From positions 1-40,682 of the IMG/VR virus record IMGVR_UViG_3300044898_000091: a stretch of DNA of 40,682 nt; one strand, written 5' to 3'. The position numbers and the translations under genes were made by a program. Position 1 is the stretch's first letter, and every line of letters begins with the position of its first letter. The stretch comes from a virus (taxonomy: Duplodnaviria > Caudoviricetes). Below, piece after piece: positions 587-36,798 of the stretch. Below the pieces are notes generated by a model. The model did no database searches, was not told the DNA's origin, and was given only the letters and a program-made list of their open reading frames with translations.

Positions 587-1603
587 ATGAGTGGCAGTGC
601 GATGCCAAAAATGGCGGTACCGATGGCGTCAGAGGAGCCGGAGTATGACGTCGCGATTTCGTTTCTTGTGTCTGATGAGAAAACCGCGTCAGCAATAAAG
701 TCCGGTCTGGCGGGCCTTAAGGTGTTCTTCTATCCCCATAATCAAGAAGACCTAGTGGGGACGAATGGCATCGAATCTATGCGCGAGCCGTTCATCGCGT
801 CGCGCGTTAACGTCATTTTGTTTCGAGAGCGATACGGCAAAACGCCGTGGACAGGGGTGGAGTTAAGCGCGATCCAAGATAGTTGTTTGAAAACGCGCTA
901 TCAGTCTCTCGTTTTTGCGCAATTGGACAAAGAAGATCAGAAACCAGCGTGGTTACCAGATACGCACATCCGCTGCGTTCTCGGTGATTTCACGGTGGAC
1001 CAACTTGTGGGAGCTATCAAGTTGCGCGTTCAGGAACGCGGCGGACTTGTAATAAAGCCCTCGGCGTTAGAGTCGGCAAAGCGGCTGCGGGCAGATGAGC
1101 TTCTTAGGCAAGATGAGAAGAAGTTTTTTCGGGACCATCCTTTCATCCAGGAGACGGGACGGAAGGTGGTCGAAGACTTGATGAAGGAGCTGACAGGACA
1201 AGCGGAGCGGATATCCGAGGAAGCGGGCCTGAAATGCGCATATGGGTACGAGCCGTATCACTCGGGGTTTCGCGCAGTGCTGAGATATGGATGGGTAACG
1301 CTCGAAGTATGGTGGAAGCAGGCTTATTCCAATGTGATGGAGGACGTTGCTTTAGAATGTGTTGAGTACAATGGGCTGGTTTGGTTGGAACGTGAAAGGA
1401 TGTTCCATCGTGTCGAGCCAAAGAAGCTTGAACAGAAAAACTATTTTGCGGCTCTTGATGCTAGTCGTGAATTGCGATGGCTGGACAAAACCAAGCCGGA
1501 GCAACTCTTGTCAAACGGTGAGATGGTCGAAAAGCTCATTGAGCAATTTCTGTCGTTAGTGGATAGGGCCAATAGCGGCAAGATCCCTGCGAGTGGTCGC
1601 TAG
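587..1603 (+). CDS. TIR-domain protein (TIR_2-like N-terminus, unknown C-terminal domain)
   Basis: YDVAISF...LKVFFY...YGKTPWTGVEL TIR motifs with the conserved Glu; AAGGAG SD before 587. Confidence 0.8.
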   Translation: MSGSAMPKMAVPMASEEPEYDVAISFLVSDEKTASAIKSGLAGLKVFFYPHNQEDLVGTNGIESMREPFIASRVNVILFRERYGKTPWTGVELSAIQDSCLKTRYQSLVFAQLDKEDQKPAWLPDTHIRCVLGDFTVDQLVGAIKLRVQERGGLVIKPSALESAKRLRADELLRQDEKKFFRDHPFIQETGRKVVEDLMKELTGQAERISEEAGLKCAYGYEPYHSGFRAVLRYGWVTLEVWWKQAYSNVMEDVALECVEYNGLVWLERERMFHRVEPKKLEQKNYFAALDASRELRWLDKTKPEQLLSNGEMVEKLIEQFLSLVDRANSGKIPASGR

Positions 1604-1840
1604 TCGAGCGTTCGGCGGAGGGTCCGGCCGCTCGATGGCGTACATTTCAAACGCCTTCGAGCCAGGGTACTTCTTTTTGCCGATGCTGAAGATGTTTACG
1701 CCTGCTTGTCTGATCTCGGTGATGCGACCGCTCGGACACGTTATGCCAGTGTCGCGCTGGATGTCTTTTGTAGTGCAGCCGCGATGGTTGAAGATGTAGT
1801 TGGCGACTTTGCGCTGTTGGTTGGTGAGGTCGTAGTTCAT
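1556..1840 (-). CDS. Small winged-helix DNA-binding protein
   Basis: LTNQQRKVANYI..H.GCTTKDI....GITCPSGRITEIRQAG HTH-like pattern; ATGA coupling to upstream gene. Confidence 0.6.
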   Translation of the reverse strand: MNYDLTNQQRKVANYIFNHRGCTTKDIQRDTGITCPSGRITEIRQAGVNIFSIGKKKYPGSKAFEMYAIERPDPPPNARLATTRRDLAAIGPIH

Positions 1841-2178
1841 AGCGCGGCAAAGAAACTCTCGGCGTCTTTTCCTTGGGCGAGATGGTCAATGAAGCGGAAC
1901 CAGTTTAATTCACATTCGGAATCGGCCATGAGCCACGCTCCATTGATTATAAATGGTTCTTTGTCCCACCCCCTCGCCCGGCCCAATGCTTGCCAGAAGA
2001 GAGGGTCGAGGAGGATTTCGTATTTACTTATCAATTCAACGCGCCCTCGGTGTTCATTGACAAATATATAGAGGCCATCTTTCTGTAGACCACGATACTC
2101 CCAAAAATGCCTTTCGCCTCGCGGTTGCCAACGGCTCTTCTCTACCGCCTCTCTGATACATGTTTCTAGTGAGGTCAT
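1837..2178 (-). CDS. Phage hypothetical protein
   Basis: ATGA-coupled on both sides within the early operon; LLDPLFWQALG motif. Confidence 0.75.
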   Translation of the reverse strand: MTSLETCIREAVEKSRWQPRGERHFWEYRGLQKDGLYIFVNEHRGRVELISKYEILLDPLFWQALGRARGWDKEPFIINGAWLMADSECELNWFRFIDHLAQGKDAESFFAAL

Positions 2179-2324
2179 ACATCCTTTATTTCATGCCGAT
2201 AAATGTCAATCGTCTCGCCTACCTTGACCGTTCCTCCTACGCAGTCATTTCCGATGCAGTAGATGTAGGTGACGATCTGTTGGTCGGCTGAGATTATTTT
2301 GATGGTGATGGTTGGTTCGTCCAT
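2175..2324 (-). CDS. Small hypothetical protein, 49 aa (MDEPTITIKIISADQQ...), below ORF-track cutoff
   Basis: Read by hand; fills the operon gap, T-ATG start, stop overlaps next ATG (ATGA). Confidence 0.6.
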   Translation of the reverse strand: MDEPTITIKIISADQQIVTYIYCIGNDCVGGTVKVGETIDIYRHEIKDV

Positions 2325-2332
2325 AGGTGCGG

Positions 2333-2683
2333 TTAGGCGGCCGCGTCCTCTTTAGTTTTTAATGGTGCTGAATCCCAATAGCCGATTTCGTGACTTGGAA
2401 TAGGAAGGCCAGGAAGATTAAAGTGGTCGGCGAAGAATCTGTTTAGATGTTCGGCGATGTCGTCAATTTCCCCGGTCTTGTTCAGTTCGGTCGTGCTGAT
2501 TTTCTTGAAAAGAGCTTTTTGTACCGTGCGCCAGATTTCCTTCATTAGCTCGGGGGTCATTTCCAGCTCTATTGTTTTCTCGAACGCCATGCGGGGCGAG
2601 ACGCCAGCATCGCGGCATTGTTGCGCCTTTTGAGTGAGCCAGAGGTGAAGGGCGCGATTTTGCTGCTCGGTGCGTTGGGCCAT
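2333..2683 (-). CDS. NinB/Orf-like recombination accessory protein
   Basis: N-terminal RTEQQNRALHLWL motif and later STTELN; located beside SSB-like and ERF genes. Confidence 0.5.
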   Translation of the reverse strand: MAQRTEQQNRALHLWLTQKAQQCRDAGVSPRMAFEKTIELEMTPELMKEIWRTVQKALFKKISTTELNKTGEIDDIAEHLNRFFADHFNLPGLPIPSHEIGYWDSAPLKTKEDAAA

Positions 2684-2686
2684 AGG

Positions 2687-2983
2687 CTAGAAAGGGACAT
2701 CGTCCGGGTTCGGCTCATCTATCGGGTTCGGCGCTTCGTCACGATGTGAGCGGTGCTGGTAATCGTCGGCAGGGCGGCTGTACTGGTTCAGTTCGCAGTA
2801 CAGCTTGCCTCCCTTGCTTTCCTTCAAATCCAAATTGACCCATCCATCGGGCTTCGTGTGGTCTATGAGGAATTTGGTAAACTCTTCCGTCTTGATGGAG
2901 AGCGAGCCTTTTACGAAGTCAGGCGCATTCTCTCGGGGTGCTTTGTAGATCAGGCCTTGGGCGAATATTTTATCGTCGGACAT
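2687..2983 (-). CDS. Putative phage single-stranded DNA-binding protein
   Basis: Small beta-rich protein with acidic tail ending DDVPF; near ERF. Confidence 0.55.
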   Translation of the reverse strand: MSDDKIFAQGLIYKAPRENAPDFVKGSLSIKTEEFTKFLIDHTKPDGWVNLDLKESKGGKLYCELNQYSRPADDYQHRSHRDEAPNPIDEPNPDDVPF

Positions 2984-2986
2984 AAT

Positions 2987-3325
2987 TTATTTGCTGGTGA
3001 GTAATTCTGGGTTCTCGAACACGTTGCCGATGATCTGGAAGTAATTTTTATCTGAGATGAAGTCGTATCCCCCCTCGGAATGTCTCGCTACGAAACAGCC
3101 GCTTTCGAATTCAACCTCATCAATTCTCCCGCCTTCTCGTTGCAATATATCCCCCTCATAAATCTCCTTCCCGTTCTTGTCGTGCAGGCCGGTGAATTGC
3201 ATGACATCGACTGCATGTGCGAGAAGGTTTTGAACAGACCTACTTCCGCCCGGGTCATTGCGAATGAACAACCAGTTGTCGAGCATCCGTTCTCCATCCC
3301 AAGCTCTGAATTTTATTTCACGCAT
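2987..3325 (-). CDS. YopX-family protein
   Basis: MREIKFRAWD...MQFTGLHDKNGKEIYEGDI...IIGNVFENPELL signature. Confidence 0.92.
   Translation of the reverse strand: MREIKFRAWDGERMLDNWLFIRNDPGGSRSVQNLLAHAVDVMQFTGLHDKNGKEIYEGDILQREGGRIDEVEFESGCFVARHSEGGYDFISDKNYFQIIGNVFENPELLTSK
3147..3184 (+). repeat. 38-bp exact direct repeat, copy 1 (copy 2 at 7712-7749)
   Basis: ATATCCCCCTCATAAATCTCCTTCCCGTTCTTGTCGTG present in both YopX genes. Confidence 0.9.
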
Positions 3326-3328
3326 ACG

Positions 3329-3976
3329 CTATTGGTCGGCTACCGCTTCTAATTGCTCCACCTTGGCCGAGAGGATTTCGGCGATTGCTTCGAGGTTGGT
3401 GTCTGTGAGTTCGGCATTTGCGTGCTTGAAGACAGCGTCCGCGACCTCTGCACGCTTCTCTGCGACGGTCTTGCCTATAGGCTTGAAGCCAAGCTGCTTC
3501 AGAAGGGACACAACGCGGTCTTTCTGGGCGAGAAGCTCGACGGCCGGGTCTTTCCTCGTCTCGGTCGGTTTCGTGCGCTGTGGGGCAGCCTGGCGCAGCT
3601 GGGAGGGTGTCTCGTCGTGGTCTGCGTCCTTCGTGTCGTCTATGAGGAAGAGGCCATTGAGGGCGTACTTGCGGGCGTAGGAGGAAGCAGCGCCTGTTAT
3701 CTGGCTAGCGTCAGAGCCTTTTTTGTCGAACGGTTCGCGCGCGTATCCGTGAGTGCTGTAAACAGTGTTTCCGTCTGCGAAAGTCGCGGTGGCTTTGATG
3801 TAGTGCCAGTCGCCGACGATTACTGGCTCGTCCGTAAGAATGAGGACGCACGCGCCAAGAAGCGGCTTGACGGCTTCTAGGATATCCTCGGCGTTGCGGT
3901 AGTCATAGTTGGCAAATGAATTGCGGTGAGACTTGGGTACTTTCAATTTCTGTTGGATGGCGTTTAATTTGTCCAT
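3329..3976 (-). CDS. erf: ERF-family ssDNA-annealing recombinase
   Basis: YDYRNAEDILEAVKPLL and SQITGAASSYARKYALNGLFLIDD motifs. Confidence 0.92.
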   Translation of the reverse strand: MDKLNAIQQKLKVPKSHRNSFANYDYRNAEDILEAVKPLLGACVLILTDEPVIVGDWHYIKATATFADGNTVYSTHGYAREPFDKKGSDASQITGAASSYARKYALNGLFLIDDTKDADHDETPSQLRQAAPQRTKPTETRKDPAVELLAQKDRVVSLLKQLGFKPIGKTVAEKRAEVADAVFKHANAELTDTNLEAIAEILSAKVEQLEAVADQ

Positions 3977-3986
3977 ACATGTGTGA

Positions 3987-4172
3987 TTAATTTTCTAATC
4001 TCTCGTCGGGGTGTGAGCCGCCAAACGAGGGTTCGTATTTTTCATCGAAGTCCTCTACAGAACCTCCGATGAGCCGGATGAGGCCGCTCAAGTTTCGCTT
4101 CTTCGTGTAATCGCGCACGATTTGATTGAAGCGCTGGTTGCGGCCTTCCTCGGTGCCTGTGTCGAAGCTCAT
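3987..4172 (-). CDS. Small hypothetical protein
   Basis: ATGA-coupled within the early operon. Confidence 0.6.
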   Translation of the reverse strand: MSFDTGTEEGRNQRFNQIVRDYTKKRNLSGLIRLIGGSVEDFDEKYEPSFGGSHPDERLEN

Positions 4173-4366
4173 ACTTTTTTGGTGAATGTGCTTTTAAGCG
4201 AACCGTCTGCGTTGTGCCGCCAGCACAAGCCGAAGATGATGATGTTGTTCCAGTGCTCGGGGCAAACATCGGTGATGAGCGGCTTGGAAGTGTTTTGGTG
4301 CAGCTCTTTCATGGCGGGGCGCATCAGGGTTTCGAGATGTGCCATTTGCTTCTCGAAGTGGCTCAT
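4169..4366 (-). CDS. Small hypothetical protein
   Basis: ATGA-coupled on both sides. Confidence 0.6.
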   Translation of the reverse strand: MSHFEKQMAHLETLMRPAMKELHQNTSKPLITDVCPEHWNNIIIFGLCWRHNADGSLKSTFTKKV

Positions 4367-4530
4367 ACGAATGTTGCGCTACTGAGTGCTAACCCCACCG
4401 TGAGCATGATGCTGATGGGAACGCTCGTTCTGTTGCGCCTGTCGCGGCGCATTTCGTTCTTCACAGCGCGGCCTCTGTCAGAATATGCGCTGTATCGGAT
4501 TTTGTCTCTAACGATATCTGGTTTTTTCAT
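4363..4530 (-). CDS. Small protein, 55 aa (MKKPDIVRDK...), basic N-terminus and hydrophobic C-terminus
   Basis: Read by hand; T-ATG start, stop overlaps the ATG of 4169..4366. Confidence 0.55.
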   Translation of the reverse strand: MKKPDIVRDKIRYSAYSDRGRAVKNEMRRDRRNRTSVPISIMLTVGLALSSATFV

Positions 4531-4956
4531 AGTGGTGATTATTTCCCTCTACCCTCACGGCATCGAGTGTCGTGAGGATGGAAGGCTCGATGCTTGATAA
4601 TTTATTCGGCTGTCTCGTGTTCATTGCCGCAGCCGGGGGCAGATGCAGTCGGTCATGTGATTTTGTTAGCTGATAATGCGATGGATGAGCTGGGAATGGG
4701 AGAGCTGTGTGCGCAAGTTCCTTACCACAGTGCCTTGCGTGCCTTTCGAGCCGTTTCTCCCCCTCCAAACCCACCATCGTTGTCGTGTCGGGTATGTGTT
4801 GCGAGCTGGGAGGAACAGGCGCGGTTTATTGTTTCATGCGCCTTCGACTGTGGAGGGATATAACCCGTCGGCCAGTGTTCGCCTCTAGTCAGTCTTGCTC
4901 CTCCAAACTCACAACTGATGTCAACGAGCTTCCTACTGCCATTGTCTCATGCCGCA

Positions 4957-4978
4957 GAAAACTCGCAAGCGAGTTTTC
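4957..4978. promoter_or_regulatory. Perfect palindrome GAAAACTCGC-AA-GCGAGTTTTC; candidate operator over a minus-strand promoter
   Basis: 10-bp arms; overlaps TTGCGA, 16 bp upstream of GACAAT (TGAGACAAT at 4941-4949). Confidence 0.6.
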
Positions 4979-4983
4979 AACAG

Positions 4984-5166
4984 TTAGGACGTTGCGCGTT
5001 GATTTCGTGTCTTTGTCAACTTTCGCTTACGCGGCTTCTTGTCTTTGCTTCCTTTCGGACGGCCGCCGAGGTTCGCCCATTTTCGTAGTTGCGCGGTCGG
5101 ATATTTTTCTCGGAGTGCGCGATTTCCTTTTTGTGCGACTTCAACAATCGTCATTAGTGTTGCCAT
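4984..5166 (-). CDS. Small basic putative DNA-binding/regulatory protein, 60 aa
   Basis: GGRPKGSKDKKPRKRK motif; ATG 6 nt after TGTTACAAT (leaderless geometry). Confidence 0.6.
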   Translation of the reverse strand: MATLMTIVEVAQKGNRALREKYPTAQLRKWANLGGRPKGSKDKKPRKRKLTKTRNQRATS

Positions 5167-5188
5167 GAGGCGATTGTAACATGGCAAA

Positions 5189-5206
5189 TAACTTGCAAGC
5201 GAGTTA
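5189..5206. promoter_or_regulatory. Second copy of the operator-like palindrome (TAACTTGC-AA-GCGAGTTA)
   Basis: Shares AACTyGCAAGCGAGTT with 4957-4978; just upstream of the extended -10 at 5173-5181. Confidence 0.6.
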
Positions 5207-5269
5207 CCCACAACCGTTCCGCTTACCGTTCCCCCTGCCTCCGATTGCACGCGGGCGATGTGGACAAAC

Positions 5270-6025
5270 CTAGCCGGGCGGCATGGGCATGAGATTGCGG
5301 AGCCACTGTAAGTCGATGAGATGAAAGAGTGCGGCGAAGGCGATGAGAGCGAGCACCAGCGGTAAGATGCCGTCTACAAGATAGTCGCGGATAAAGTAGA
5401 GGGAGCGAACTGCGTAGAGGGAGAATTTCAGATGGCGGTAGTGTCTCGCTCGGCGCTTGAGGTAAGTTTTGCCGGCCTTATCGATGTGTGTGTCGATGAG
5501 GGTGAAAATGGCTGGGTCGGTTTCTCGCGTTAACACTTTAGGCGCGTTGTGGGGGTTTCCACGGTAGACGATGAAGTTGCGAGGAATCGGCGGATGCGAA
5601 ATTACCCCAGGAGGTACGTTCTCCAGTTGTTGAAAGTAGCTCGCTATGGTGCTCCATTCGTTGGTATTAATTGTTACTTGTTCAGGGAGACTGGCTTGGA
5701 TTTTGCGAAGTGTTAGATTGCCGTGGTTCGACCAAAAGCTGTTGCGTGCTGAATCATAGTTTTTTTGTTTCGCTACCTGATGGGGGGTCTGCTCAAGGTT
5801 GCGGATGTCGATGAAGTAGTAGAGCGCGAATGTGGTCGTCATGTAGAGCAGGGTTGCGATAAGGAGAAATGCGAACACCCGATTGTCGAATGAGATTGAT
5901 AGGCCAGCGACAGGGATTTTATCGATTGAAACGTCGAATGCCCGGTAGATAATAGCGAGCATCGACGCAACGAGAAGGTTTCGTTTTGTCGCTCGGGTCG
6001 CGGGTGAGAGCGGGTCTACTGCCAT
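5270..6025 (-). CDS. Membrane protein of unknown function (accessory gene)
   Basis: 251-aa ORF with two N-terminal and one C-terminal hydrophobic helices. Confidence 0.75.
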   Translation of the reverse strand: MAVDPLSPATRATKRNLLVASMLAIIYRAFDVSIDKIPVAGLSISFDNRVFAFLLIATLLYMTTTFALYYFIDIRNLEQTPHQVAKQKNYDSARNSFWSNHGNLTLRKIQASLPEQVTINTNEWSTIASYFQQLENVPPGVISHPPIPRNFIVYRGNPHNAPKVLTRETDPAIFTLIDTHIDKAGKTYLKRRARHYRHLKFSLYAVRSLYFIRDYLVDGILPLVLALIAFAALFHLIDLQWLRNLMPMPPG

Positions 6026-6161
6026 TGCAGAGAGATAGCACGATTCTTACAATTCCCCTGCCCCTTCGATGATAAAATAAGCGCAGGCGCTCTTTGTTTA
6101 AGGCCGGTGGGAGCAGCCTGTGTCACGATGCGCAGCTCTACTTCTTTCCGGCCAATATTCC

Positions 6162-6941
6162 ATGAATGCACTTGTTGTCGGAGCAAATAAGGCTCCCATC
6201 CTTGAATTTATACGGCCAGGGCGTGAACCTTTACTTTTAATTGACGACGGGCCGCTGATTGACGAGCTGGTGATTCCGCCACAGCAAAGGCCAGTGCGTT
6301 TCGATGTCAAAAAGCACCACCTGAATCCATTGCATGAAATGGATTACAGGCGGGCGCGGGAGTTCATTTCAATCATCGACGCGATTTTCCCCGAAGGTGA
6401 CAGCACGCTCACGAAGAAGAACGCCAATTTCGTTTTACTCAATGCCCTGCTTGAAGAACCAACCCGCCTCGACAAGCTGCTGCGGGGCGACAAGCGCGAC
6501 CCTGCCAAACAGGACGCCTACCAGAAGATAGAGACCATCCTGCTCTCGCCTGTCCTGCGCTCGGTGCTGTGCGAGCCGACGAATTTTTCAATGAAAGGAA
6601 TTGTCCTGGCGCGGCTCGACCGTGCCGTACTCGGCGATTTTGATTCTTTTGTTCTCGCCAACCTCCTCATCTCGCAATTCGAGGGCCAGGTGATATTGCC
6701 CGATGCAGGCTTCTATCTGCGTGAACACCACATATCGCTTATCAGACAGGACAGGCTCGTTGCCGGCGTCAATACGCTCTCTGAACTGCCGCTGGGCCTT
6801 CGGCAGGCTCTCTTGACCGTGCCTGAGAAGATTGCATCACGGACAACGTCTGAAGACGCGGAGATCTTGGCGAAGTACCGTGGCTTTGTCCCACACACGA
6901 TTGAACATTCCGATTTTATTCAGGAAGCCATGCGCGGATAG
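6162..6941 (+). CDS. Degenerate TraD/VirD4-like fold protein lacking Walker motifs
   Basis: ALVVG, LLLIDDG, HLNPL, GVNTLSELP...RQALL, TSEDAEILA are collinear with coupling-ATPase motifs; TGATAAAAT promoter at 6070-6078. Confidence 0.55.
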   Translation: MNALVVGANKAPILEFIRPGREPLLLIDDGPLIDELVIPPQQRPVRFDVKKHHLNPLHEMDYRRAREFISIIDAIFPEGDSTLTKKNANFVLLNALLEEPTRLDKLLRGDKRDPAKQDAYQKIETILLSPVLRSVLCEPTNFSMKGIVLARLDRAVLGDFDSFVLANLLISQFEGQVILPDAGFYLREHHISLIRQDRLVAGVNTLSELPLGLRQALLTVPEKIASRTTSEDAEILAKYRGFVPHTIEHSDFIQEAMRG

Positions 6942-6951
6942 GCCGCGTCCT

Positions 6952-7119
6952 TTACCGTCTCTTATACAGTCCGCGTCCGATAATGGCGTTCACAGGCTTC
7001 GGGAGCATCGTGTCGGGCACGTACTTGGTCTCCCGATTCGGGCACTGTCCGCGCAGTCGCTGCACTTTCCATTGATGGTCTGGGCCTGGGCGACGGCAGT
7101 TCTTGCAGGCGGGCATCAT
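6952..7119 (-). CDS. Small Cys/His protein, 55 aa (MMPACKNCRRPGPDH...C)
   Basis: Read by hand; ATGA overlap with upstream gene; CxxC..H..C. Confidence 0.5.
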   Translation of the reverse strand: MMPACKNCRRPGPDHQWKVQRLRGQCPNRETKYVPDTMLPKPVNAIIGRGLYKRR

Positions 7120-7514
7120 GCCGCGAGCAATTTATTCTCTATGAGGTAGATGAGCATTTTGGCGCGGGCGTCGGCTTCGGTGTCGGCGGTCTGCAAACCT
7201 TTGTAGCCACCAAGCGTATCTACAGTGGCTTCGTCATAACAGACCTCCCACCACACGCCTCGCGTGATGGTCAGATTGCTTTGATGCAGCCGCTTCGGCA
7301 ACATCTCCCCAAGCTCTGCGACGGTGAAGGCGGAGACGCCGGGTTCGCAAAACTCTACTTGGTTGTATGAGGAGATTTCTTTTTTTGTCATGGGCTGTGG
7401 CAGAAAATCCAATGATACATCGCCACACCACCAGAATATGCTCTCCTGCTCGACTCCCAATTCCTTGAGCCGCTTGGCGAGGTCAAGACTACAGACTTGT
7501 TGTTGTAGCTCCAT
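7116..7514 (-). CDS. Conserved phage hypothetical protein
   Basis: QVCSLDLAKRLKELGV...SAFTVAELGEMLP...TEADARAKMLIYL pattern recurrent in phage early regions. Confidence 0.8.
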   Translation of the reverse strand: MELQQQVCSLDLAKRLKELGVEQESIFWWCGDVSLDFLPQPMTKKEISSYNQVEFCEPGVSAFTVAELGEMLPKRLHQSNLTITRGVWWEVCYDEATVDTLGGYKGLQTADTEADARAKMLIYLIENKLLAA

Positions 7515-7515
7515 A

Positions 7516-7923
7516 TCATTTCAGCAGCTCTGGGTTCTCGTAGATGTTGCCGATGACTTCCCCATCGATGTTAGTGTTGATGAGAATAGGTTCGGAGTCG
7601 CACCCGCGCAGAGATTTAATGCGCTGGGAGCGCCACGCGATGGCGAACTGAGCAAGCTCGTTCCACCATCGCACTTCGACAATCGCTTCGTCATCGTGGA
7701 AATATCTCACAATATCCCCCTCATAAATCTCCTTCCCGTTCTTGTCGTGTAGTCCCGTGAACTGCATGAGTTGGGAGAGCTGGAACTCTGCAATTTGCGT
7801 GCCTGTTTCGTCGAAGGCCGTTGCGTCGTGTTGACGATAACCCGCCGCAAAGTCGATGCGGGTCAATTCGTTTTCCATCCGGCTATGCGCTGCGTCCCAG
7901 ACGCGAAATTTTATGTCTCTCAT
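7516..7923 (-). CDS. YopX-family protein (second copy)
   Basis: MRDIKFRVWD...MQFTGLHDKNGKEIYEGDIV...EVIGNIYENPELL. Confidence 0.92.
   Translation of the reverse strand: MRDIKFRVWDAAHSRMENELTRIDFAAGYRQHDATAFDETGTQIAEFQLSQLMQFTGLHDKNGKEIYEGDIVRYFHDDEAIVEVRWWNELAQFAIAWRSQRIKSLRGCDSEPILINTNIDGEVIGNIYENPELLK
7712..7749 (+). repeat. 38-bp exact direct repeat, copy 2
   Basis: Identical to 3147-3184. Confidence 0.9.
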
Positions 7924-8183
7924 ACGATGAGGTCAATTAAGGATGGTGTCTCCCGGATGTTGCCGACGACTTCCCCATAGATGACCCCAAGCTCGTCGCT
8001 TGAAATGCGGTTCAAGAAAAGTCCGTTGTATACATCAAAGCGTGAGGATGATTTCCCGCTGCCGTTGGCTTGTATGCTAACGCCGTTCGTCGATTGGATG
8101 TGCCCCTCGCCCAGCACCTTGAGGACGATTGCCCCCTGGCCGTCGCGTGACTTGAGCACGTCTCCCTTCCTAATTTCATTCAT
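7920..8183 (-). CDS. YopX C-terminal-like protein
   Basis: EIRKGDVL...EVVGNIRETPSL matches the second half of YopX. Confidence 0.6.
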   Translation of the reverse strand: MNEIRKGDVLKSRDGQGAIVLKVLGEGHIQSTNGVSIQANGSGKSSSRFDVYNGLFLNRISSDELGVIYGEVVGNIRETPSLIDLIV

Positions 8184-8189
8184 AAATCT

Positions 8190-8890
8190 TCGCTCGAACG
8201 TGCGCCCGCTAGTAACAGGCGCACACTCGAACGTACTAGCTTATATGCCGTCCATTCTCTCATGCCCCGCTCCGCTGTCCAGTTCCGCACTGGTCAGAAC
8301 TGTGGTCGGCTAAAAGGACACGGCTCAGGGACACGCCTCACGTGACGGCGGCGGACTATCGTGACGGCCCGCAGGGCTGTTCGATAGCCCGTAACGACGT
8401 TCGTGAGGCGTGAGCTTCAGGCACCAAGGTCGTCCAGGCGCCCACTGTGACATTCGTGCATCGGTAGGTTTCAGTGAAACAGTGCAGCCTCGGGCGCAAG
8501 GTGACGGTGGATCGTCCGCCACCGTTCGTCGCAAGTGCCGTTAGGCCGCGACCTAAACATATCCGTGCCCTCGCCCCCGAGCTTTAGCGAAGAGGGGCGA
8601 ATGGGCTGTGGGAGCCGTCCGCGGCTTAGCGGTCCCGCTGGCGGGAAGAAGAATTACCCACAATGGATATGTTTAGGTCGCGGCCGAATAGGCGCGCGAA
8701 CGGTGGCGGAAATGTAGGAATTGCAGGCATTGTCAGCGTAGACACAGTTGTAGGTACAGTGAGTAGGACTGTGGAAGGGGGTGTAGGTAGGCACTGTGAA
8801 GGGTGAATGTAGCGCGAGCGATCGAAGCCGAAGGCCAAGACCGGAGGGCTTGGTGCGAAGCACGAGAGCGCGGTCCCTAAAGGACGCGCC
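8190..8890. other. Highly structured non-coding locus (ssDNA origin/promoter or ncRNA candidate)
   Basis: Perfect inverted repeats 8544-8564/8665-8685 (21 bp), 8515-8528/8697-8710 (14 bp), 8332-8342/8402-8412 (11 bp), many nested hairpins, no credible ORF. Confidence 0.75.
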
Positions 8891-9150
8891 TAGAAGGTCC
8901 GACGCTCGTGCTGATTGGCAAGGAGTTGTCGGGCACGGTCGTTAGGGTTCCAAACCTTGAATTCCTCGCGCATGAAGATCGTGGTGGGACACAGAGGGTC
9001 CAGGCACCGGAACCAGCGGGAATAGTAAAAGGGCTGCTTGAGCACCTTGGAATTGATGTCCTTATGTTCCCTGACCTCGGAAGGTCCGTTGCCGCAGCGG
9101 GGACATTCGGGGCCGTTTGTTCCCATGACGATGCAGCGGTTCTTGCTCAT
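8890..9150 (-). CDS. Small Zn-ribbon-like protein
   Basis: CPRC...WFRCLDPLC; ATGA-coupled to the replication gene. Confidence 0.7.
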   Translation of the reverse strand: MSKNRCIVMGTNGPECPRCGNGPSEVREHKDINSKVLKQPFYYSRWFRCLDPLCPTTIFMREEFKVWNPNDRARQLLANQHERRTF

Positions 9151-9976: not shown

Positions 9977-10168
9977 CTACGTGCGTGTGCCGGCGACAGT
10001 GATCCCGCCAGCTTGGTAGCGGCGAATGAGCGCCCAGAGAGCGCCACCGATGATAACGAGTGTCTGGATGGTGGTGCCGAGCGCGCCGCTGTCAACGTCG
10101 ATGCCGAGTTTCGGGAGGACGTAGACGCCTATGAGTGACGTGATGATGCCGAGGTACGTTTGTGACAT
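9977..10168 (-). CDS. Putative holin (two TM helices)
   Basis: 63 aa, two hydrophobic segments, basic C-terminus, directly after the endolysin. Confidence 0.65.
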   Translation of the reverse strand: MSQTYLGIITSLIGVYVLPKLGIDVDSGALGTTIQTLVIIGGALWALIRRYQAGGITVAGTRT

Positions 10169-10175
10169 GAATGAA

Positions 10176-15551: not shown

Positions 15552-15552
15552 A

Positions 15553-27829: not shown

Positions 27830-29125
27830 TCAGATGCCGATGTCTGGGTATAACGGTTCAGACTCCTCTGTCTCGTCCTCTTTCTCATCACTTATCCCTG
27901 CATTGTGCAGGTCGGCGATCGGGTAACTGACGGCATCCATTGCATGCGACCACGTATGAGCAGGCTCGCCTTTCGGATTACCGTCCTTATCCTCCGCCCA
28001 CGCATAGTTCTCGTACGACTCCCACACGTTCTTGCTGCGTGACGTGACGAAGATCTTCTTGGTCGAAGTGACCTTAATTCTGAAATTAACACTGTCCCGA
28101 CCCTTCGCAGCGCCGGTGACGTTGATGTTGTAACCGTTCTGTTCCGAAATGCTCTTCGGCTCGGCACTGTCTGCGACAGTTATGGCGTCCCCTGCCTTCT
28201 TTATTTCTCCCGCTAGATATTCGTTCGTCAGCTCTGTGCCATAAGCAATCTCGTCGATGACATATGCACCGTTCCAGTAGTAGACCGCTACGATACATGC
28301 AGGGTCAGGATACCAGCCGAAGTCTTCACCGAAACGCACAAGGCGCGCGCCTTCGGGAACGGAATCAATCTGCTGCCAGCCGGTGAATATCTTGCCGCGC
28401 TTCTGTTCGGGCGACAGTCCCTCGATGACTTGCCAGTAGTACGCCGGCTTGGTGACCTTGTAGTTTTGATATCGCTGTACCGTAGCGGGGTCGATATTGG
28501 GTTCGTTCTCCCGCCACGTACCGGAGATGTGGATTGCGTCCGTGATCTCTGGCTTCAACGAGGGGATGTAAAACCCTCGTGCTTCTGGATGTGGAGTGAG
28601 GTTAAAAAACTTCTTGATTATCCAATGATTCTTCGGCGGGGTGTTGAGCGAGAGAATGATGCGGATGCGCCCTTTGACGGTGCGGAGCGTGTCATCGAGT
28701 GTTCTAAATTCATCCTCTCCAATCTCTTCTGCTTCTTCGCCCCATACGAAGTTGTAGCCGGCAAGCGATTTGAGGCGTGCAGTCAATGAGCCGCTTGACG
28801 CGCGAAAACCATGAGCGCGAAGGCTATTGCGGCCGTACTCGATGAACATATCGTTGTCGACGATGTGGAATTGCTCTTGGGCCTCCTGCTCTCGAATACG
28901 GTCGATGATCTCGCTCCAGCATGAAGCACGGATATCTTCACGAACGGCGCGCATCAGAGCGCCGCGAGTATATTCCTTGCTTACGAGTTGGGAAACCGAA
29001 TATCGGGAGGCTGTACCTGAGCGGCCATTACCGCGTCCTCCCATTACGAGGGCATAGCGCCAATCGTTTCGTTCCCACAGTGGCGTATGGCTGTCGTGGA
29101 CCTCGAATGAAAGCGTCTCGTTCAT
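27830..29125 (-). CDS. terL: Terminase large subunit (PBSX/Terminase_3-like)
   Basis: GGRGNGRS Walker A variant, WGEEAEE Walker B, LNTP, GEDFGWYPDP, ADSAEPKSI, HAMDA nuclease motifs. Confidence 0.93.
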   Translation of the reverse strand: MNETLSFEVHDSHTPLWERNDWRYALVMGGRGNGRSGTASRYSVSQLVSKEYTRGALMRAVREDIRASCWSEIIDRIREQEAQEQFHIVDNDMFIEYGRNSLRAHGFRASSGSLTARLKSLAGYNFVWGEEAEEIGEDEFRTLDDTLRTVKGRIRIILSLNTPPKNHWIIKKFFNLTPHPEARGFYIPSLKPEITDAIHISGTWRENEPNIDPATVQRYQNYKVTKPAYYWQVIEGLSPEQKRGKIFTGWQQIDSVPEGARLVRFGEDFGWYPDPACIVAVYYWNGAYVIDEIAYGTELTNEYLAGEIKKAGDAITVADSAEPKSISEQNGYNINVTGAAKGRDSVNFRIKVTSTKKIFVTSRSKNVWESYENYAWAEDKDGNPKGEPAHTWSHAMDAVSYPIADLHNAGISDEKEDETEESEPLYPDIGI

Positions 29126-29373
29126 CGACGCACTTTAATTTCAACACCCTTGATGTAGATGGGATTATCTTTGTCACCTGTGAGAGGCTGCGGCGCTTTC
29201 CCAAACAACTGGTCACCAAGCCACACGGCAAGGCGCATATCGCCCATGTAGGAATCAAGAATGAACTCGACGAACTTCTTGCGCTCTACATCGCTTACAT
29301 AGTTGCGGAATTGAGGGACGGTGGTGCTGCCCTTCTTGCGTCCTGAACCCGGTCGTGCGCCGCCTTTAGCCAT
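29122..29373 (-). CDS. Terminase small subunit candidate
   Basis: GGARPGSGRKKG N-terminus, FGKAPQPLTGDKDNPI C-terminus; ATGA-coupled to terL. Confidence 0.75.
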   Translation of the reverse strand: MAKGGARPGSGRKKGSTTVPQFRNYVSDVERKKFVEFILDSYMGDMRLAVWLGDQLFGKAPQPLTGDKDNPIYIKGVEIKVRR

Positions 29374-30407: not shown

Positions 30408-30719
30408 TCATAACCCAGCGGTTTGAACGTCGTCGATTGAACGAGCAACAACGTACATCCCGCCGTTCAGGATGATGTCGCGGCCAAGCTCTTCCTGCTC
30501 CGGTGACAACCGCCCTACCTCACTCTTCACCTCGATGCCGTAGAATTTGCCGCTCTTGATGAGGCATATATCCGGCCAGCCCTTGCGCGTGTACTTGGGA
30601 AGCGCGCGGAATGCGCCTCGCGTCTTGTCGTAGATCGGGGCGTTATTGGTGCGGGAGAAGAGATAACCCTTGAGGACAAGGTAGTCGCAGATCGCGGCTT
30701 GAACATCGGTCTCCTTCAT
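30408..30719 (-). CDS. VRR-NUC domain nuclease (Holliday junction resolvase-like)
   Basis: E.DVQ.AI.DYL...GWPDI......FYGIEVK...GRLSPEQ; T-ATG start at 30719. Confidence 0.9.
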   Translation of the reverse strand: MKETDVQAAICDYLVLKGYLFSRTNNAPIYDKTRGAFRALPKYTRKGWPDICLIKSGKFYGIEVKSEVGRLSPEQEELGRDIILNGGMYVVARSIDDVQTAGL

Positions 30720-31274: not shown

Positions 31275-31634
31275 TCAACGCTGCGAGAGGTTCACCACAA
31301 GCGCCACAAGCGACTGGCGAAGGCGCTGGTTGCTGATCTTATTGAACGCTTCCGCAAGCTTGAACGCATCGGGGCGACGGAGCAGCTGTAGCGGCGGATG
31401 AGTTTGCCCGGGCATTTTCGCCCCGTCGTAGAAAGCCGCGATGGGTGCTTTGAGGAGGTTGGCGATGATGAGCAGCCGGCCGGCTCCTATGCGGTTCGTC
31501 CCCTTCTCGTACTTCTGAACCTGCTGGAAGGTCACGCCGAGATGCTTGCCCATGTTGATCTGTGACATGTGAGCCGCCTGCCTGAGGAGCCGCATATTGG
31601 CTCCAACAAGCACGTCATTCGGGTGGGGAGCCAT
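31275..31634 (-). CDS. XRE-family HTH regulator (alphaproteobacterial type)
   Basis: HPND..VG...LGVTFQQVQKYEKGTNRIGAGRL; GGAGG SD before ATG 31634. Confidence 0.92.
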   Translation of the reverse strand: MAPHPNDVLVGANMRLLRQAAHMSQINMGKHLGVTFQQVQKYEKGTNRIGAGRLLIIANLLKAPIAAFYDGAKMPGQTHPPLQLLRRPDAFKLAEAFNKISNQRLRQSLVALVVNLSQR

Positions 31635-31847: not shown

Positions 31848-32399
31848 ATGAACCTCTACGGCTACGCTCGGGTCAGTACCAATGGACAGGCGCTCGACGC
31901 TCAAGTGACGCAGCTTGAAGCGGCCGGGTGCGCCCGCATCTTTCGTGAAAAGGTCAGCGGCGCAAAGACAGACCGGGCAGAGCTAAAGAAGCTGCTGCGG
32001 ACGCTGCGGGTCGGGGATCTGGTGCTGGTGACGCGTCTAGACCGCCTCGCCCGCTCCACGCGTGACCTTCTCAACATCCTCGCTCTGGTAAGCGACAAGA
32101 GCGCAGGCTTCCGCTCCCTAAGCGATGTGTGGGCAGACACGACGACGGCGCACGGCAGGCTGATGCTGACGATATTAGGCGGGCTAGCTGAGTTCGAGCG
32201 CGAGCTGATTAAGTCCAGGACGGCAGAAGGACGCGCGCGGGCTGTCGCTATGGGTGTCCGTCTCGGTCGGCGCCCTAAGCTAGATGAGGAGCAACGCAAG
32301 GCTGCTTGTGGGCGCAAGCAGGCGGGTGAGGACGTGGCGTCGATCGCGCGGGACTACAAGGTGTCGGATTCTACGATATCGAGGATTATCTGTGAGTAA
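31848..32399 (+). CDS. Serine recombinase (resolvase/invertase)
   Basis: YGYARVST..Q, VTRLDRLARS, AEFERELI, C-terminal HTH. Confidence 0.95.
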   Translation: MNLYGYARVSTNGQALDAQVTQLEAAGCARIFREKVSGAKTDRAELKKLLRTLRVGDLVLVTRLDRLARSTRDLLNILALVSDKSAGFRSLSDVWADTTTAHGRLMLTILGGLAEFERELIKSRTAEGRARAVAMGVRLGRRPKLDEEQRKAACGRKQAGEDVASIARDYKVSDSTISRIICE

Positions 32400-33326: not shown

Positions 33327-33785
33327 ATGTTGTATCCTTTATCGCCTACACGGCTCTGCGCCAGCCTCGTCATTTTGTTTCTGATGAGCAATGCGGCGGA
33401 AGCGCAAATTACCTCTCCGTGCGCGAGACATACAGTTACGACCTATCCCTTATCATCCGAACTGAACCATGTATCTCACTGCGTCGCGGCACTGGCATGC
33501 CCTGGGCAACTCGTCGAGGTCGAAATCAAACGGATCGAGCGGGACGGCGGGGAGATAAACCAATGGCTGGTGAGTAGTTATAACGTCAGCGCCACGTACA
33601 CGCCGGGGCAACAGGATATGATCATTCAAAGCGCCAAAGGCCTTGCCGCCCTTCACAAACCGGCGTCAAAATACATTGTTAATATAGTTTTTTATTGGAC
33701 AACAATACCTGATTTGGGACCTCCAAATTATTTCGTCGGCGCAAATATCACTTACGGCAAATGTCGGGCGCAGCGACCAGGGTGA
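33327..33785 (+). CDS. Accessory secreted protein
   Basis: GGAG SD, signal peptide ending AEA-Q, paired Cys, lower GC. Confidence 0.65.
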   Translation: MLYPLSPTRLCASLVILFLMSNAAEAQITSPCARHTVTTYPLSSELNHVSHCVAALACPGQLVEVEIKRIERDGGEINQWLVSSYNVSATYTPGQQDMIIQSAKGLAALHKPASKYIVNIVFYWTTIPDLGPPNYFVGANITYGKCRAQRPG

Positions 33786-34047
33786 TGTACTCGTCTCCGA
33801 GCATCAATGTGATCGACCGCTGCCCGGCAAACATTCCGATGCGCCAGTAGAAAAGGCAATCGGCGTACTCGAACACTCCCTCGCTGTGGTCATCCATCGT
33901 GAAGTGCGCCGCCTGGCTCATGCGGTAGAGCGCCCGGCCGCGCATTTGAGGCGGGAGCGCGTAGACCGACGGCGACATGAGAACGATGCCGCCGATAAAT
34001 TCCGAACGGAGCAGGTCGTTGACGCGGATGGCTGTCGCTTGGTCCAT
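33748..34047 (-). CDS. DUF3768-like protein
   Basis: NDLLR..FIGG.VLMSPSV.AL...DHSEG.F......YWRI......ITLML.DEY. Confidence 0.65.
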   Translation of the reverse strand: MDQATAIRVNDLLRSEFIGGIVLMSPSVYALPPQMRGRALYRMSQAAHFTMDDHSEGVFEYADCLFYWRIGMFAGQRSITLMLGDEYITLVAAPDICRK

Positions 34048-34323: not shown

Positions 34324-34914
34324 CTACGCTGTTCGCTTCGGTATGGCGACCACGTTAGAGACTGGCAGTTGCCATTTGGACGGGAGCTTTTCGATTTCCG
34401 TCAGGCCGATGTAGCCGACCAATGTTCCATCTTCGAGACGAATAGGAACGGCGATGGTGCCGCGCATCAGTCCTTTGCCCGCGTAGCCGATTCCGAGAGC
34501 TTGTGCGGTTTCGGCGTCGAACCCGAGCACCTGCACCGCGTCGTGGGAATGCTCCAAGTAGTCTAGCGGCTTCATGCCGCCTGCTGTCGCCGCCTGCGGT
34601 TTCGGCGCTTCTTCCTGCTTCGGCGTTGCGATGCGGAAATGTTCTGCGAGTTCTTGCGCCGCCTCTCGTTGGCTTACTCCTCGGATGTGAGCAACGAGCG
34701 AAATTTGGTCACCGCCCTTGCCTTCCGAAAAGCAATAATAGGAGGACTTCGATACGTTCACAGCCAGTGCCCGTTCTCCACCGTTGCGGCAAGAGGGACA
34801 TGCCGAGCGGAGTTGGTCGTTGCCCTTCATTCGAAGGTCGAGCATTTGGACGCACAGAGCGATACTCACCTTTTCCTTAAGCTGGGCGAAGTCGATGAAA
34901 TCTTTGCCGGCCAT
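34324..34914 (-). CDS. CHC2-type primase zinc-finger protein without TOPRIM domain
   Basis: IDFAQLKEKVSI...CPSC...YYCFS...GGDQISLVAH; AAGGAG SD. Confidence 0.8.
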   Translation of the reverse strand: MAGKDFIDFAQLKEKVSIALCVQMLDLRMKGNDQLRSACPSCRNGGERALAVNVSKSSYYCFSEGKGGDQISLVAHIRGVSQREAAQELAEHFRIATPKQEEAPKPQAATAGGMKPLDYLEHSHDAVQVLGFDAETAQALGIGYAGKGLMRGTIAVPIRLEDGTLVGYIGLTEIEKLPSKWQLPVSNVVAIPKRTA

Positions 34915-35098: not shown

Positions 35099-35353
35099 AT
35101 GAGTACGGATACGGACACGCGCCCTGTGCGGCGTGGTCAACAGCAGAACGAGCCACGGCCCATCGCATTTTATGTGCGAGCCAAAACGGGTCCCGGCCCG
35201 CGTGACTGGTCGCCAGTCGGCGTTTGTTTTGCCCGGAAGAACAATGCTCCGGGTTTTACAATCAAGCTCAACACGCTTCCGATCACCGGCTGGAACGGAG
35301 CGATGGTTCTCGTTCCCCCGTTCGCGGACGACGACGAACCTATCGACGAATAG
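35099..35353 (+). CDS. Small acidic-tailed protein (DUF736-like, possible ssDNA-binding)
   Basis: W..VG..F......GFTIKLN.LP...W.G..VL.PP + DDDEPIDE tail. Confidence 0.6.
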   Translation: MSTDTDTRPVRRGQQQNEPRPIAFYVRAKTGPGPRDWSPVGVCFARKNNAPGFTIKLNTLPITGWNGAMVLVPPFADDDEPIDE

Positions 35354-35366
35354 AACTTCGTCACCT

Positions 35367-35395
35367 GGGCGGCCTCGCGGTCGCCCTCATTTTTT
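35367..35395 (+). terminator. Intrinsic terminator
   Basis: GGGCGGCC/GGTCGCCC stem followed by a T-rich tract. Confidence 0.6.
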
Positions 35396-35421
35396 ATGGT
35401 AGAATGAGTGGAATTGGTCTT

Positions 35422-35763
35422 TGAAAATTGGGCGGCAAACTAAAAACAAAAGAAGCACATATGCAAATCAACATTAGGTTGCCGAGGCCTGTAGATATAG
35501 AAAATGACAGCTACGAAGGAGTTAAGAGCTTCCTTAAGCAGCTCGAACTCGCCGTGCACCATGCACAAAAATCTCTTCAAGAGATGGCAAACATGGAGAA
35601 GGAGCGCGGAAATAGTGAACCAACATTCGGTGTCTTATACCGTCCTCTAAATGTAGAAGACTCTTCGACTGGAGTACGAGCTGACCTAGGGGAACATCCA
35701 TCATCAGATGATGTCGAAATTGAAGTCTACACGATGTAATTAAAAACCGCCGCCCAATTTTCA
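35422..35763. repeat. 15-bp perfect inverted repeats (TGAAAATTGGGCGGC) bracketing one gene
   Basis: 35422-35436 and 35749-35763 are exact reverse complements. Confidence 0.85.
35461..35739 (+). CDS. Small acidic hypothetical protein, 92 aa
   Basis: T-ATG start after an A-rich leader, TGGTAGAAT promoter at 35397-35405, low GC. Confidence 0.65.
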   Translation: MQINIRLPRPVDIENDSYEGVKSFLKQLELAVHHAQKSLQEMANMEKERGNSEPTFGVLYRPLNVEDSSTGVRADLGEHPSSDDVEIEVYTM

Positions 35764-35772
35764 GAGAGGCAA

Positions 35773-36798
35773 TTACTTTGCTCCCAACTCCGCAAGAATA
35801 TCAAGCGGCGGATGCCCTACCCGTTGCCACGGCTCTGTCAGCATGAAGCCCGTAGGCTTCGGGAAATGGTCGATGGATGCGAACTCGCGGACAAATTTGA
35901 ATGCGATGTGCTTCGAGCCTTCGCCGGCCGTGCGGTCTTCTAAAAGAAGCATCATTTGTTTCATGACGTACTCGCTTGTTGTGACAAACAGAGTGACGGG
36001 GGTGGGAATGCCGAGTAGCCGCTGGTAAGTGCGGTGCTTGTGCAGTTCAAGCGCGGCAATAATTTTTTCATTGTGAGTCTGCCGACCAGCTACTTTTCCA
36101 GGATTGTTGTCTTCTGTATTGCGATCGACCTCGATGCCGGCGATGAACAGGCGGGCTGTCTTGCCACCTTCGGGCGTGTACGCGATTGCGAACGGCTTGG
36201 TGTCGTGGACGATGTTTCGGTCAACCTCGACTAGCCTGTTATAGGGGTGCGGGGTTCGGTAATTGAATTGCGCGGGAAAATGAAAGGGTGTCGGCGAGCG
36301 TTTCGTCTCAAGCGGGCAGGACGGATGCGCGAGGATATCGCGGTAGGCAACCAGCGAGAGGCCAGGTGTATCCTTCACGCCGATAGCGAACGAGGCTTCC
36401 GTGATGCAGCGCGCGGACTTGTGCTTGATATGGTCATTACCGCGTGCAATGGGCCAGTACAGTCCCGCTTCAGCGAGCATCTGTTCGCCGCGCTCCGTGA
36501 GTGAGTAAATTGCCGCACGTGAGCGTGCGCGGTCGGATTGCCATGAACTAGGCGGACATTCGATAACGCCGGCCTCATGTCTGAGGTCGGTGAGTCGGCG
36601 GAAAAAGTGGCCGCGCGGCGTTCCTTTCGGCGTGTAGGTAATGCGTGCGCCGAGCATGATGGCCATGTACACGCTCGGCAGGCACTCATAGGTCTGCAAC
36701 AGGTCAAGAATGCGAAGGGTAAGCGGCGTTTTATAAATGATCCCCCCACGCGGGGTGTTGTCGGTGCGTGAATATCCCTTTGGTGTTTTCTTCAACAT
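35773..36798 (-). CDS. Replication-relaxation (Replic_Relax-like) protein
   Basis: N-terminal wHTH (RRLTDLRH...IYSLTERGEQML), HIKH, and IEVDRNTE motif; next to coupling ATPase. Confidence 0.75.
   Translation of the reverse strand: MLKKTPKGYSRTDNTPRGGIIYKTPLTLRILDLLQTYECLPSVYMAIMLGARITYTPKGTPRGHFFRRLTDLRHEAGVIECPPSSWQSDRARSRAAIYSLTERGEQMLAEAGLYWPIARGNDHIKHKSARCITEASFAIGVKDTPGLSLVAYRDILAHPSCPLETKRSPTPFHFPAQFNYRTPHPYNRLVEVDRNIVHDTKPFAIAYTPEGGKTARLFIAGIEVDRNTEDNNPGKVAGRQTHNEKIIAALELHKHRTYQRLLGIPTPVTLFVTTSEYVMKQMMLLLEDRTAGEGSKHIAFKFVREFASIDHFPKPTGFMLTEPWQRVGHPPLDILAELGAK

Follow-up and report, generated by a model that had tools for sequence, protein, structure and literature searches.

A two-part provirus that joins a virion module with few Shine-Dalgarno sites to an integration/relaxase arm, with relatives integrated in Alphaproteobacteria

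Introduction

To our knowledge, the hosts and the phages of most environmental Patescibacteria (candidate phyla radiation, CPR) are unknown. Among the described systems, Xhp1, a prophage of Schaalia odontolytica XH001, binds and weakly infects the epibiont TM7x (PMC13578794). Phages that are co-targeted by CRISPR spacers of CPR and non-CPR bacteria were reported by Liu et al. in 2023 (PMC10746230). Relaxases of the Replic_Relax family (PF13814) are classed as MOBC, and a few MOBC integrative and mobilizable elements (IMEs) or mobilizable plasmids, which bring their own VirD4, borrow a mating pore (PMC5357655, PMC5704250). The present work concerns a virus record of 40,682 nucleotides, IMGVR_UViG_3300044898_000091, which as a whole is referred to as the window. 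The window is a provirus in which a podovirus-like head, fiber, and lysis module is joined to an integration/relaxase arm. The original prediction, made from the sequence of the window, held that it is a virus of a CPR epibiont that also integrates in an alphaproteobacterium. What is new is the composite element, for which no description was found in the literature searched (subscription journals lay largely outside it, and supplements were excluded).

Results

The window is bounded at gene ends, with a stop codon as its first letters and the ATG of the integrase as its last. Because its large terminase (TerL) protein is on record from a contig of 56,274 nucleotides, about 15 kb more DNA exists beyond the window. 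Pfam and PHROG scans were performed on 58 hand-picked open reading frames. In the following, the arm denotes the genes from the integrase to the CHC2 gene plus their neighbors, and the core denotes positions 1556-29373; genes lie on the minus strand unless stated otherwise. Read from the right end, the window encodes a tyrosine integrase with an Arm-DNA-binding domain (39540-40682, Pfam), an excisionase-like small protein named from its position without a Pfam match (39231-39452), a TrwB/VirD4-like, coupling-protein-like ATPase with a Cys-rich N terminus (36908-38806, PF10412), a MOBC-like Replic_Relax relaxase (35773-36798; weak Pfam match, E 0.005, with PF13814 features and structure), a CHC2 zinc-finger protein (34324-34914, PF01807), a serine resolvase (31848-32399, plus strand, Pfam) divergent from an XRE regulator (31275-31634, Pfam), and a VRR-NUC nuclease (30408-30719). 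These are followed by a small terminase candidate (29122-29373), listed together with TerL (27830-29125, Terminase_3), and by an SU10-like portal (25388-27385; PF23899, phrog_1216). Left of the portal lie the major capsid protein (22358-23557), head-completion, likely tail/ejection, and collagen-repeat genes (13359-22338), an S74-chaperone fiber protein with a signal peptide-like N terminus (11609-13366; PF13884 and PHROG tail-fiber matches), a likely lysis cassette (9977-11605), and early/recombination genes (1556-9650) for a replication initiator-like protein, two YopX proteins, ERF, and a winged helix-turn-helix protein.

With an HK97-fold capsid, a portal, a large terminase, an integrase, and relatives flanked by host genes, the window has the features of a temperate tailed phage (Caudoviricetes). 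The capsid protein of 399 residues was modeled with AlphaFold (pLDDT 80), and the best Foldseek matches of this predicted structure were the capsids of cyanophage A4, CUS-3, P-SCSP1u, T7, and P22. Neither a tape measure nor a sheath protein was matched among the window proteins in Pfam or PHROG, so a podovirus-like particle is likely. The integrase, several insertion sites, and a patchy distribution distinguish the element from a gene transfer agent. The window contains no tRNA, Rfam match, or terminal repeat, and a search for an att duplication found none.

Core and arm use different start signals. Among the curated minus-strand ATG starts of the core, T precedes the ATG (T-ATG) in 27 of 37 and a Shine-Dalgarno (SD) motif is present in 1 of 37; an automatic gene caller gave 21/31 and 1/32, respectively. 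The background of T before any ATG on the core strand is 68/331, so that the excess in the core has p ~2e-8. The original prediction had listed 23 core starts of this type. All 23 are T-ATG starts on the minus strand, but the list was selective and omitted 10 non-T core starts, including those of the portal (27385) and TerL (29125). For the accessory genes, all seven listed starts carry GGAG/GAGG; the accessory side as a whole is mixed, with SD sites in 9 of 19 non-core starts. The excisionase-like gene, the CHC2 gene, and, with a strong site, the XRE gene are SD-led. The starts of the ATPase (38806), the relaxase (36798, T-ATG), the resolvase (31848), and a DUF3768-like gene (34047) lack an SD site, and the VRR-NUC gene, like most of the early genes, begins with T-ATG. 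The start signal of the integrase gene is unreadable, as its ATG forms the very end of the window.

The same gene caller, a home-made one that misplaced some starts, was applied to all start-site sets. Alphaproteobacterial host stretches had 9/130 T-ATG and 67/161 SD starts and thus do not share the dialect of the core. Sinorhizobium phage PBC5 (T-ATG 2/36, SD 24/42) and Agrobacterium phage Atu_ph08 (3/42 and 32/52) resembled the hosts. With SD sites in 1/32 core starts and no portal match, the window does not fit an ordinary alphaproteobacterial phage. Two Patescibacteria chromosomes had 88/157 T-ATG and 5/169 SD starts, 14 other stretches from the same phylum had 89/178 and 45/201, and a Muribaculaceae chromosome had 8/26 and 2/29. 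In the relatives described below, the difference between the two parts recurs: five other cores showed T-ATG in 92/123 and SD in 10/128 starts, compared with 11/52 and 27/62 in six arms. Orthologue pairs retain the T at −1 in 20 of 24 cases, versus 14-15 of 24 at adjoining positions, although the pairs are non-independent. The two-dialect pattern is confirmed.

Relatives of the element were sought with TerL in 185,579 genomes, which yielded 72 loci. Nine of these have at least 52% identity: three are in Patescibacteria-type bins (69-76%), one is on a 4.9-kb contig of a Clostridiales bin, and five are in four alphaproteobacterial genomes; none is from Bacteroidota. One of the Patescibacteria-type bins, G406, is of the same phylum as the class of G005, a genome considered below. 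The same arm plus terL/head layout is present in the high-GC chromosomal contigs G001:C7, G001:C5, G002:C56, G003:C333, and G460:C287, and in both G001 loci as well as in G002 and G003 the arm genes come before terL with unchanged gene order. A remnant of the element was found in G004:C5. The integrated relatives are flanked by DNA of ~62-68% GC with genes for TRAP transporters, SfsA, molybdoenzymes, or dcd, and their insertion points are radC, tRNA-Leu, tRNA-Gly, and tRNA-Phe. G001 includes a 2.13-Mb contig, and its ribosomal proteins share a median identity of 78% with their counterparts in the Bradyrhizobium genome G003, whose family we take to be Xanthobacteraceae in GTDB. Among 301 genomes of this family, three have a window-type terL; G460 is the sole one that had not been pre-selected (1/299 unselected genomes), and it shows the same layout. 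In addition, six IMG/VR records share the layout wholly or partly (G706, G707, G995, G996, G1000, and G1001), and G995 is a complete, arm-bearing circle. G1000 ends just past the CHC2 gene without an ATPase match and was counted as arm-bearing by its XRE, resolvase, DUF3768-like, and CHC2 genes. A metagenome scan covering 4 of 64 parts returned mostly distant TerL sequences. That the window is a genuine two-part element with relatives integrated in alphaproteobacteria is, in our judgment, nearly certain.

The arm has a distribution of its own. Homologues of the coupling-like ATPase occur in 22 of the 301 family genomes, and in 10 of these 22 the neighborhood has no match to the window terL, portal, or capsid (some stretches end early); the arm thus also moves independently of this phage module. 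The window integrase is 55-60% identical to those of G002, G460, G442, G452, G536, and G571, all of the same family, and the excisionase-like gene is conserved beside the integrase in related elements (39-100%). The relaxase matches PF13814 in Atlas features and predicted structure (TM 0.77/0.82), a family that is commonest in Pseudomonadota, and its residues Asp-199, Glu-223, and Asp-225 are invariant in seven homologues. Homology of the ATPase to VirD4-type coupling proteins is weak. A membrane anchor is typical of VirD4 coupling proteins; the window ATPase has no hydrophobic segment (maximum 19-residue hydropathy 0.94), and neither do four of five other large homologues checked. On plasmids, the ATPase has remote homologues only (at most 35%), and the record of the top match lists no phage genes. 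The gammaproteobacterial Methylomagnum plasmid NZ_AP019788.1 (L257) carries the same set of ATPase, Replic_Relax, CHC2, resolvase, and TIR genes, also with no phage genes listed. In G002:C56, positions 6299-96244 hold three related elements in tandem, one with phage genes and two in which none were found, ending at tRNA-Gly(CCC). A 26-nucleotide piece of this tRNA-Gly region recurs upstream of another integrase in the tandem, and one of the tandem ATPases carries an internal stop.

The origin of the core was assessed from terminase, portal, and capsid. Both TerL and the capsid branch within a set of low-GC, SD-less phages and not with ordinary alphaproteobacterial phages. The nearest catalogued TerL, from an uncultured spring phage, is 48% identical, and the portal has no match among 50,697 phage records. 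A pool of 109 IMG/VR terL loci, several of which are the same contig fetched twice, has a median GC content of 38%, T-ATG in 647/1147 and SD in 134/1188 starts. Arm genes were found in 3 of these 109 loci, of which only 26 have at least 6 kb of upstream sequence. Arm-less phages of 34-51% GC carry 45-65% relatives of the window portal and capsid, and arm-less low-GC phages carry syntenic homologues (~29-63%) of the genes at 13359-22338. One of the low-GC head-module relatives, G1002, is a complete circle without the ATPase. In the TerL tree, the window groups with phage terminases that are mostly of low GC, and it shares a strongly supported clade with three CPR-bin sequences. A single clade of arm-bearing sequences was rejected for TerL (8/64 rows, p-AU 1e-8) as well as for the capsid (7/23 rows, p-AU 1e-46), which indicates that modules were exchanged repeatedly. 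The head genes of G1000 are 90-98% identical to those of the window, but its TerL only 29%, so terminases were swapped. At least three TerL types are found behind small terminase genes that are 69-87% identical; TerL was exchanged independently of the small terminase and the portal.

Links to CPR genomes were found at several points. G1003 is a 39%-GC provirus of the window's capsid clade with a T-ATG integrase. This integrase can be aligned over its whole length (35% identity, E 5e-62) to one located between the single-copy rpsP gene and terL in the Patescibacteria contig G139:C40. Its other best matches are weaker, with 27-29% in 151 other genomes of the phylum and up to ~25% in catalogued phages. 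G1003 also contains a reverse transcriptase with Lcl_C genes (L409:13134-16272), likely a diversity-generating retroelement, of a kind common in CPR. Among 75 tree sequences, TerL of the arm-bearing G706 has its best match in this terL of G139 (50%), and unassigned metagenome loci score 55-60%. The other CPR-bin matches are free or phage-sized contigs, and G005:C20 is a free circle with a 55-nucleotide end repeat. G001:C5, G002, G442, and G1001 encode a second small ATPase; in a comparison made with Patescibacteria only, it shares 33-50% identity with ATPases encoded in the chromosomes of G005 and G139. G442 (L193:17472-18653) consists of one contig of 8.0 Mb; it holds an element in which no phage genes were detected, with an ATPase 47-50% identical to Patescibacteria chromosomal ATPases. 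The assignment of the core to CPR hosts draws on the bins, one distant chromosome junction, and codon use; we consider it probable that the core was drawn from CPR phages.

Leucine codons were compared between the core and its possible hosts. The window capsid gene uses CTC 22 times and CTG not once. In eight capsid genes the ratio of CTC to CTG is 119:26, compared with 76:118 and 50:104 in host ribosomal operons and 40:0 and 46:5 in two CPR operons; the capsid leucine codons match the two Patescibacteria and are unlike the hosts. The fraction CTC/(CTC+CTG) is 0.66-0.88 in nine cores, even at a GC content of 83% at third codon positions (GC3), versus 0.42 in the host, 0.51-0.52 in alphaproteobacterial phages, and 0.29-0.43 in Bacteroidota. 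The GC3 of 83% is that of the G996 core, which has SD sites in 0/30 starts and a CTC fraction of 0.88. Five head genes compared between the window and G1000 show dN/dS of 0.03-0.11 at pS of 0.41-0.53, with 0.028 for the portal; the head genes are under purifying selection.

Further features of the window were recorded. The likely lysis cassette consists of a candidate endolysin (406 residues, C-terminal phrog_873 endolysin match) between two small membrane proteins with a putative holin role. A lipobox scan for spanins gave no credible window gene; control phages were mostly noise too, so this was not counted as evidence. For the S74 protein, described in the original prediction as rich in ATTS and ASST, the S74 family assignment was borne out by Pfam and 49% of its residues are Ala, Ser, Thr, or Gly, but each motif occurs only once. 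Six-frame ATTS/ASST counts did not separate CPR from controls. The S74 protein was matched in 5 of 301 Patescibacteria-phylum genomes (24-41%). The XRE and DUF3768-like genes had been called Bradyrhizobiaceae-type. Matches of XRE with a named host are mostly alphaproteobacterial phages, and the DUF3768-like protein (33748-34047), which has no direct Pfam match, is 30-36% identical to PF12599-bearing G002 proteins.

Positions 8180-8890 are gene-free and conserved in G707 and G1000 and partly in G001:C7. An alignment of relatives shows a covarying 24-bp stem (8541-8564/8665-8688), and in the long stem of this region 17 of 59 predicted pairs have double changes (three sequences only, two of them near-identical). 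The region is a candidate structured RNA, origin, or origin of transfer. The plus-strand gene at 6162-6941 encodes a 259-residue protein of unknown family without a Pfam, NCBIfam, or PADLOC match. Its six homologues among the fetched loci (42-86%) are all in arm-bearing elements and sit either within the core or between excisionase and ATPase; a relationship to the coupling-like ATPases was considered and gave no match. An SD-led, plus-strand cargo gene (587-1603) with a weak TIR_2 match (E 0.0015) may be anti-phage; PADLOC found no match for it or for the other cargo genes. A small AT-rich gene (35461-35739) lies between copies of a 19-nucleotide inverted repeat, and this stretch (35418-35767) is absent from the G706 and G707 alignments and resembles a cassette insert. 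The YopX paralogues (2987-3325 and 7516-7923) have 58- and 28-nucleotide direct repeats in common.

Discussion

We give even odds to the interpretation that the element is a temperate, likely short-tailed two-part phage for which Alphaproteobacteria likely serve as storage hosts and whose particles are likely assembled in CPR cells living on or beside them. CPR ancestry of the core is likely; a two-host cycle has about an even chance. In such a cycle, the SD-led integrase and excisionase would carry out integration and excision at tRNA-Gly, -Leu, -Phe, or radC in the alphaproteobacterial chromosome; the integration is documented for the relatives and would hold by extension for the window. The excised circle, a form in which the relative G995 exists, might reach a CPR cell as a virion or by the MOBC-like relaxase and the ATPase through a borrowed channel. 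The SD-less, T-ATG, CTC-rich late genes would be translated and particles formed there, presumably in the CPR cell. Co-infection with arm-less CPR phages could then swap terminases and head modules; the swapping itself is observed, and a CPR cell is its probable site. Progeny would finally re-enter alphaproteobacteria and integrate. A broader form of this proposal, a two-host virus family of lytic CPR-epibiont phages that are parked by an alphaproteobacterial arm as prophages in Xanthobacteraceae-type hosts of the epibionts, appears somewhat less probable than its negation.

Several observations weigh against a CPR stage. All integrations verified for the arm-bearing type are in alphaproteobacteria, and no CPR chromosome was found to contain a close relative; the junction in G139:C40 is the sole one found and is distant. 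TerL was detected in 3 of 401 CPR bins (one being the query's own bin) and the capsid in 4 of 241, all weak, and these matches are mostly on phage-sized or short contigs that are possibly mis-binned. The trees are quick maximum-likelihood searches only. Bacteroides phage BS-TP2 (T-ATG 28/42, SD 4/43) is indistinguishable from the window core, and the T-ATG excess is missing from two CPR genomes of high GC content (5/42, 3/20). The core dialect matches CPR genes but, being common to a Bacteroides phage, is not CPR-specific, and as proof of CPR origin it was discarded on the basis of this control. A CTC fraction of 0.7 or more occurs in only 2 of 17 CPR stretches, the arms are CTC-rich as well (0.55-0.82), and the CTC excess is partly visible in another reading frame. 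The total codon distance of the core is 0.08-0.10 to alphaproteobacterial phages versus 0.13-0.29 to eight CPR samples. All arm-bearing elements have 54-62% GC, compared with the pool median of 38%, as expected from residence in a high-GC host. In Caulobacter crescentus, 75.4% of the genes start without an SD site at equal efficiency (PMC4117421), so an alphaproteobacterial host could translate the core. The relaxase profile gave one weak match in 251 Patescibacteria genomes. No mating-pore family (VirB4 etc.) was found by Pfam among the 58 window proteins, and a Walker-A scan of the called genes of six related records revealed no further large VirB4-like ATPase; the element therefore does not qualify as a self-transmissible integrative and conjugative element. 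With no membrane anchor and no mating-pore genes, mobilization is plausible only. Relaxase-mediated transfer of the element seems rather improbable, and a role in replication of the circle is as likely as mobilization. The original prediction is supported in part. Of the three outcomes set down as refuting it, none occurred: the core genes branch apart from ordinary alphaproteobacterial phages, the host stretches lack the T-ATG bias, and the layout is present in independent assemblies. The start dialect alone, however, does not identify a CPR host.

The main rival explanation is a repeated host switch. An alphaproteobacterial integrative element would have captured CPR-type head modules several times, the full cycle would now be alphaproteobacterial, and the dialect would be a relic, with the core translated by SD-independent initiation and translational coupling. 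The exclusively alphaproteobacterial integrations, the GC content of every arm-bearing element, the smallest overall codon distance, and the efficient translation of non-SD mRNA in Caulobacter agree with this explanation, as does the tight spacing of many core genes. Repeated capture, however, still requires a cell in which both partners meet, with repeated access to the low-GC pool, and neither SD sites nor CTG codons have been gained: G996 combines a GC3 of 83% with an SD-less, CTC-rich core, and the T at −1 is kept in orthologue pairs. We regard the host switch as possible but less probable than a cycle that includes CPR cells. If the SD-less pool instead infects another SD-less group, such as Bacteroidota, and the CPR bins are mis-binned, the element would be a cross-phylum mosaic not involving CPR. 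The shared dialect of BS-TP2, the free circular state of G005:C20, and the Clostridiales bin with a 52% TerL fit this explanation. It is nevertheless unlikely, since Bacteroidota are missing among the close TerL matches and their samples favor CTG (CTC fractions of 0.29 and 0.43), since the related integrase and terL of G139 adjoin a single-copy CPR gene, and since the small ATPases resemble CPR chromosomal ones.

Alphaproteobacteria could also be a dead-end sink, in which hybrids that arise and are selected in CPR occasionally enter, integrate, and decay with no return. The remnant in G004:C5, the stop within one tandem G002 ATPase, and the rarity of window-type terL among unselected family genomes are compatible with decay. 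Against it stand the host-type SD use that the arm keeps, an integrase-excisionase pair conserved across divergent elements, and the complete circular G995, and we consider a sink very improbable. That the window might be an assembly chimera, a CPR phage joined artificially to an alphaproteobacterial island, was a concern because the window stops short of its own flanks and the only sequencing run found may be its source. In that run, Logan contigs cover 60 of 60 window bins at a depth of ~6-11.5 with no step at the core/arm boundary, evidence that is not independent. The same layout occurs in at least five chromosomal loci and six viral records, and its presence in several independent genomes and assemblies is a strong argument that reduces a chimera to a negligible probability.

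If the CPR/alphaproteobacteria cycle is true, prophages in cultivable strains of the Bradyrhizobium family could be used to find out which hosts CPR bacteria have, to obtain CPR phages in isolation, and to bring DNA into CPR cells, and one virus genome would be tuned to two translation systems in two phyla. In a two-host family, the host would carry in its prophage a weapon that could be induced against the parasite, and a given prophage would identify one pair of CPR bacterium and host. Even under the host switch, the data show that an integrative element present in ~7% of one family's genomes has repeatedly captured whole virion modules across a phylum boundary.

Comparison with the described systems places the element between several of them. 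Xhp1 and the element have in common that they reside as prophages in free-living bacteria; contact with a CPR cell, observed for Xhp1, is a proposal for the element. Xhp1 productively infects its actinobacterial host, whereas the virion module of the window groups with SD-less, likely CPR phages, and the window element has a relaxase/ATPase arm and an alphaproteobacterial host (PMC13578794). The phages of Liu et al. were likewise proposed to span CPR and non-CPR bacteria despite translation differences. That proposal is based on spacers and concerns Saccharibacteria, Gracilibacteria, and Absconditabacteria; in its accessible text Alphaproteobacteria are absent and no integrated two-dialect genome is described (PMC10746230). 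The IME_Class_8 elements with MOBC (PF13814) and VirD4 have in common with the arm a compact integrase/relaxase/coupling-protein module without a mating pore. They differ in having a serine rather than a tyrosine integrase and a streptococcal rather than an alphaproteobacterial host, and in the window the ATPase lacks a membrane anchor and the module is fused to a full virion module (PMC5357655, PMC5704250). With the HK97-fold podoviruses of the P22/CUS-3, T7, and SU10-like types, the element shares capsid fold, portal, and terminase, with an SU10-like adaptor in the window's relatives; its capsid, in contrast, is at most 13% identical to solved capsids, and its portal stands apart from all phage records searched.

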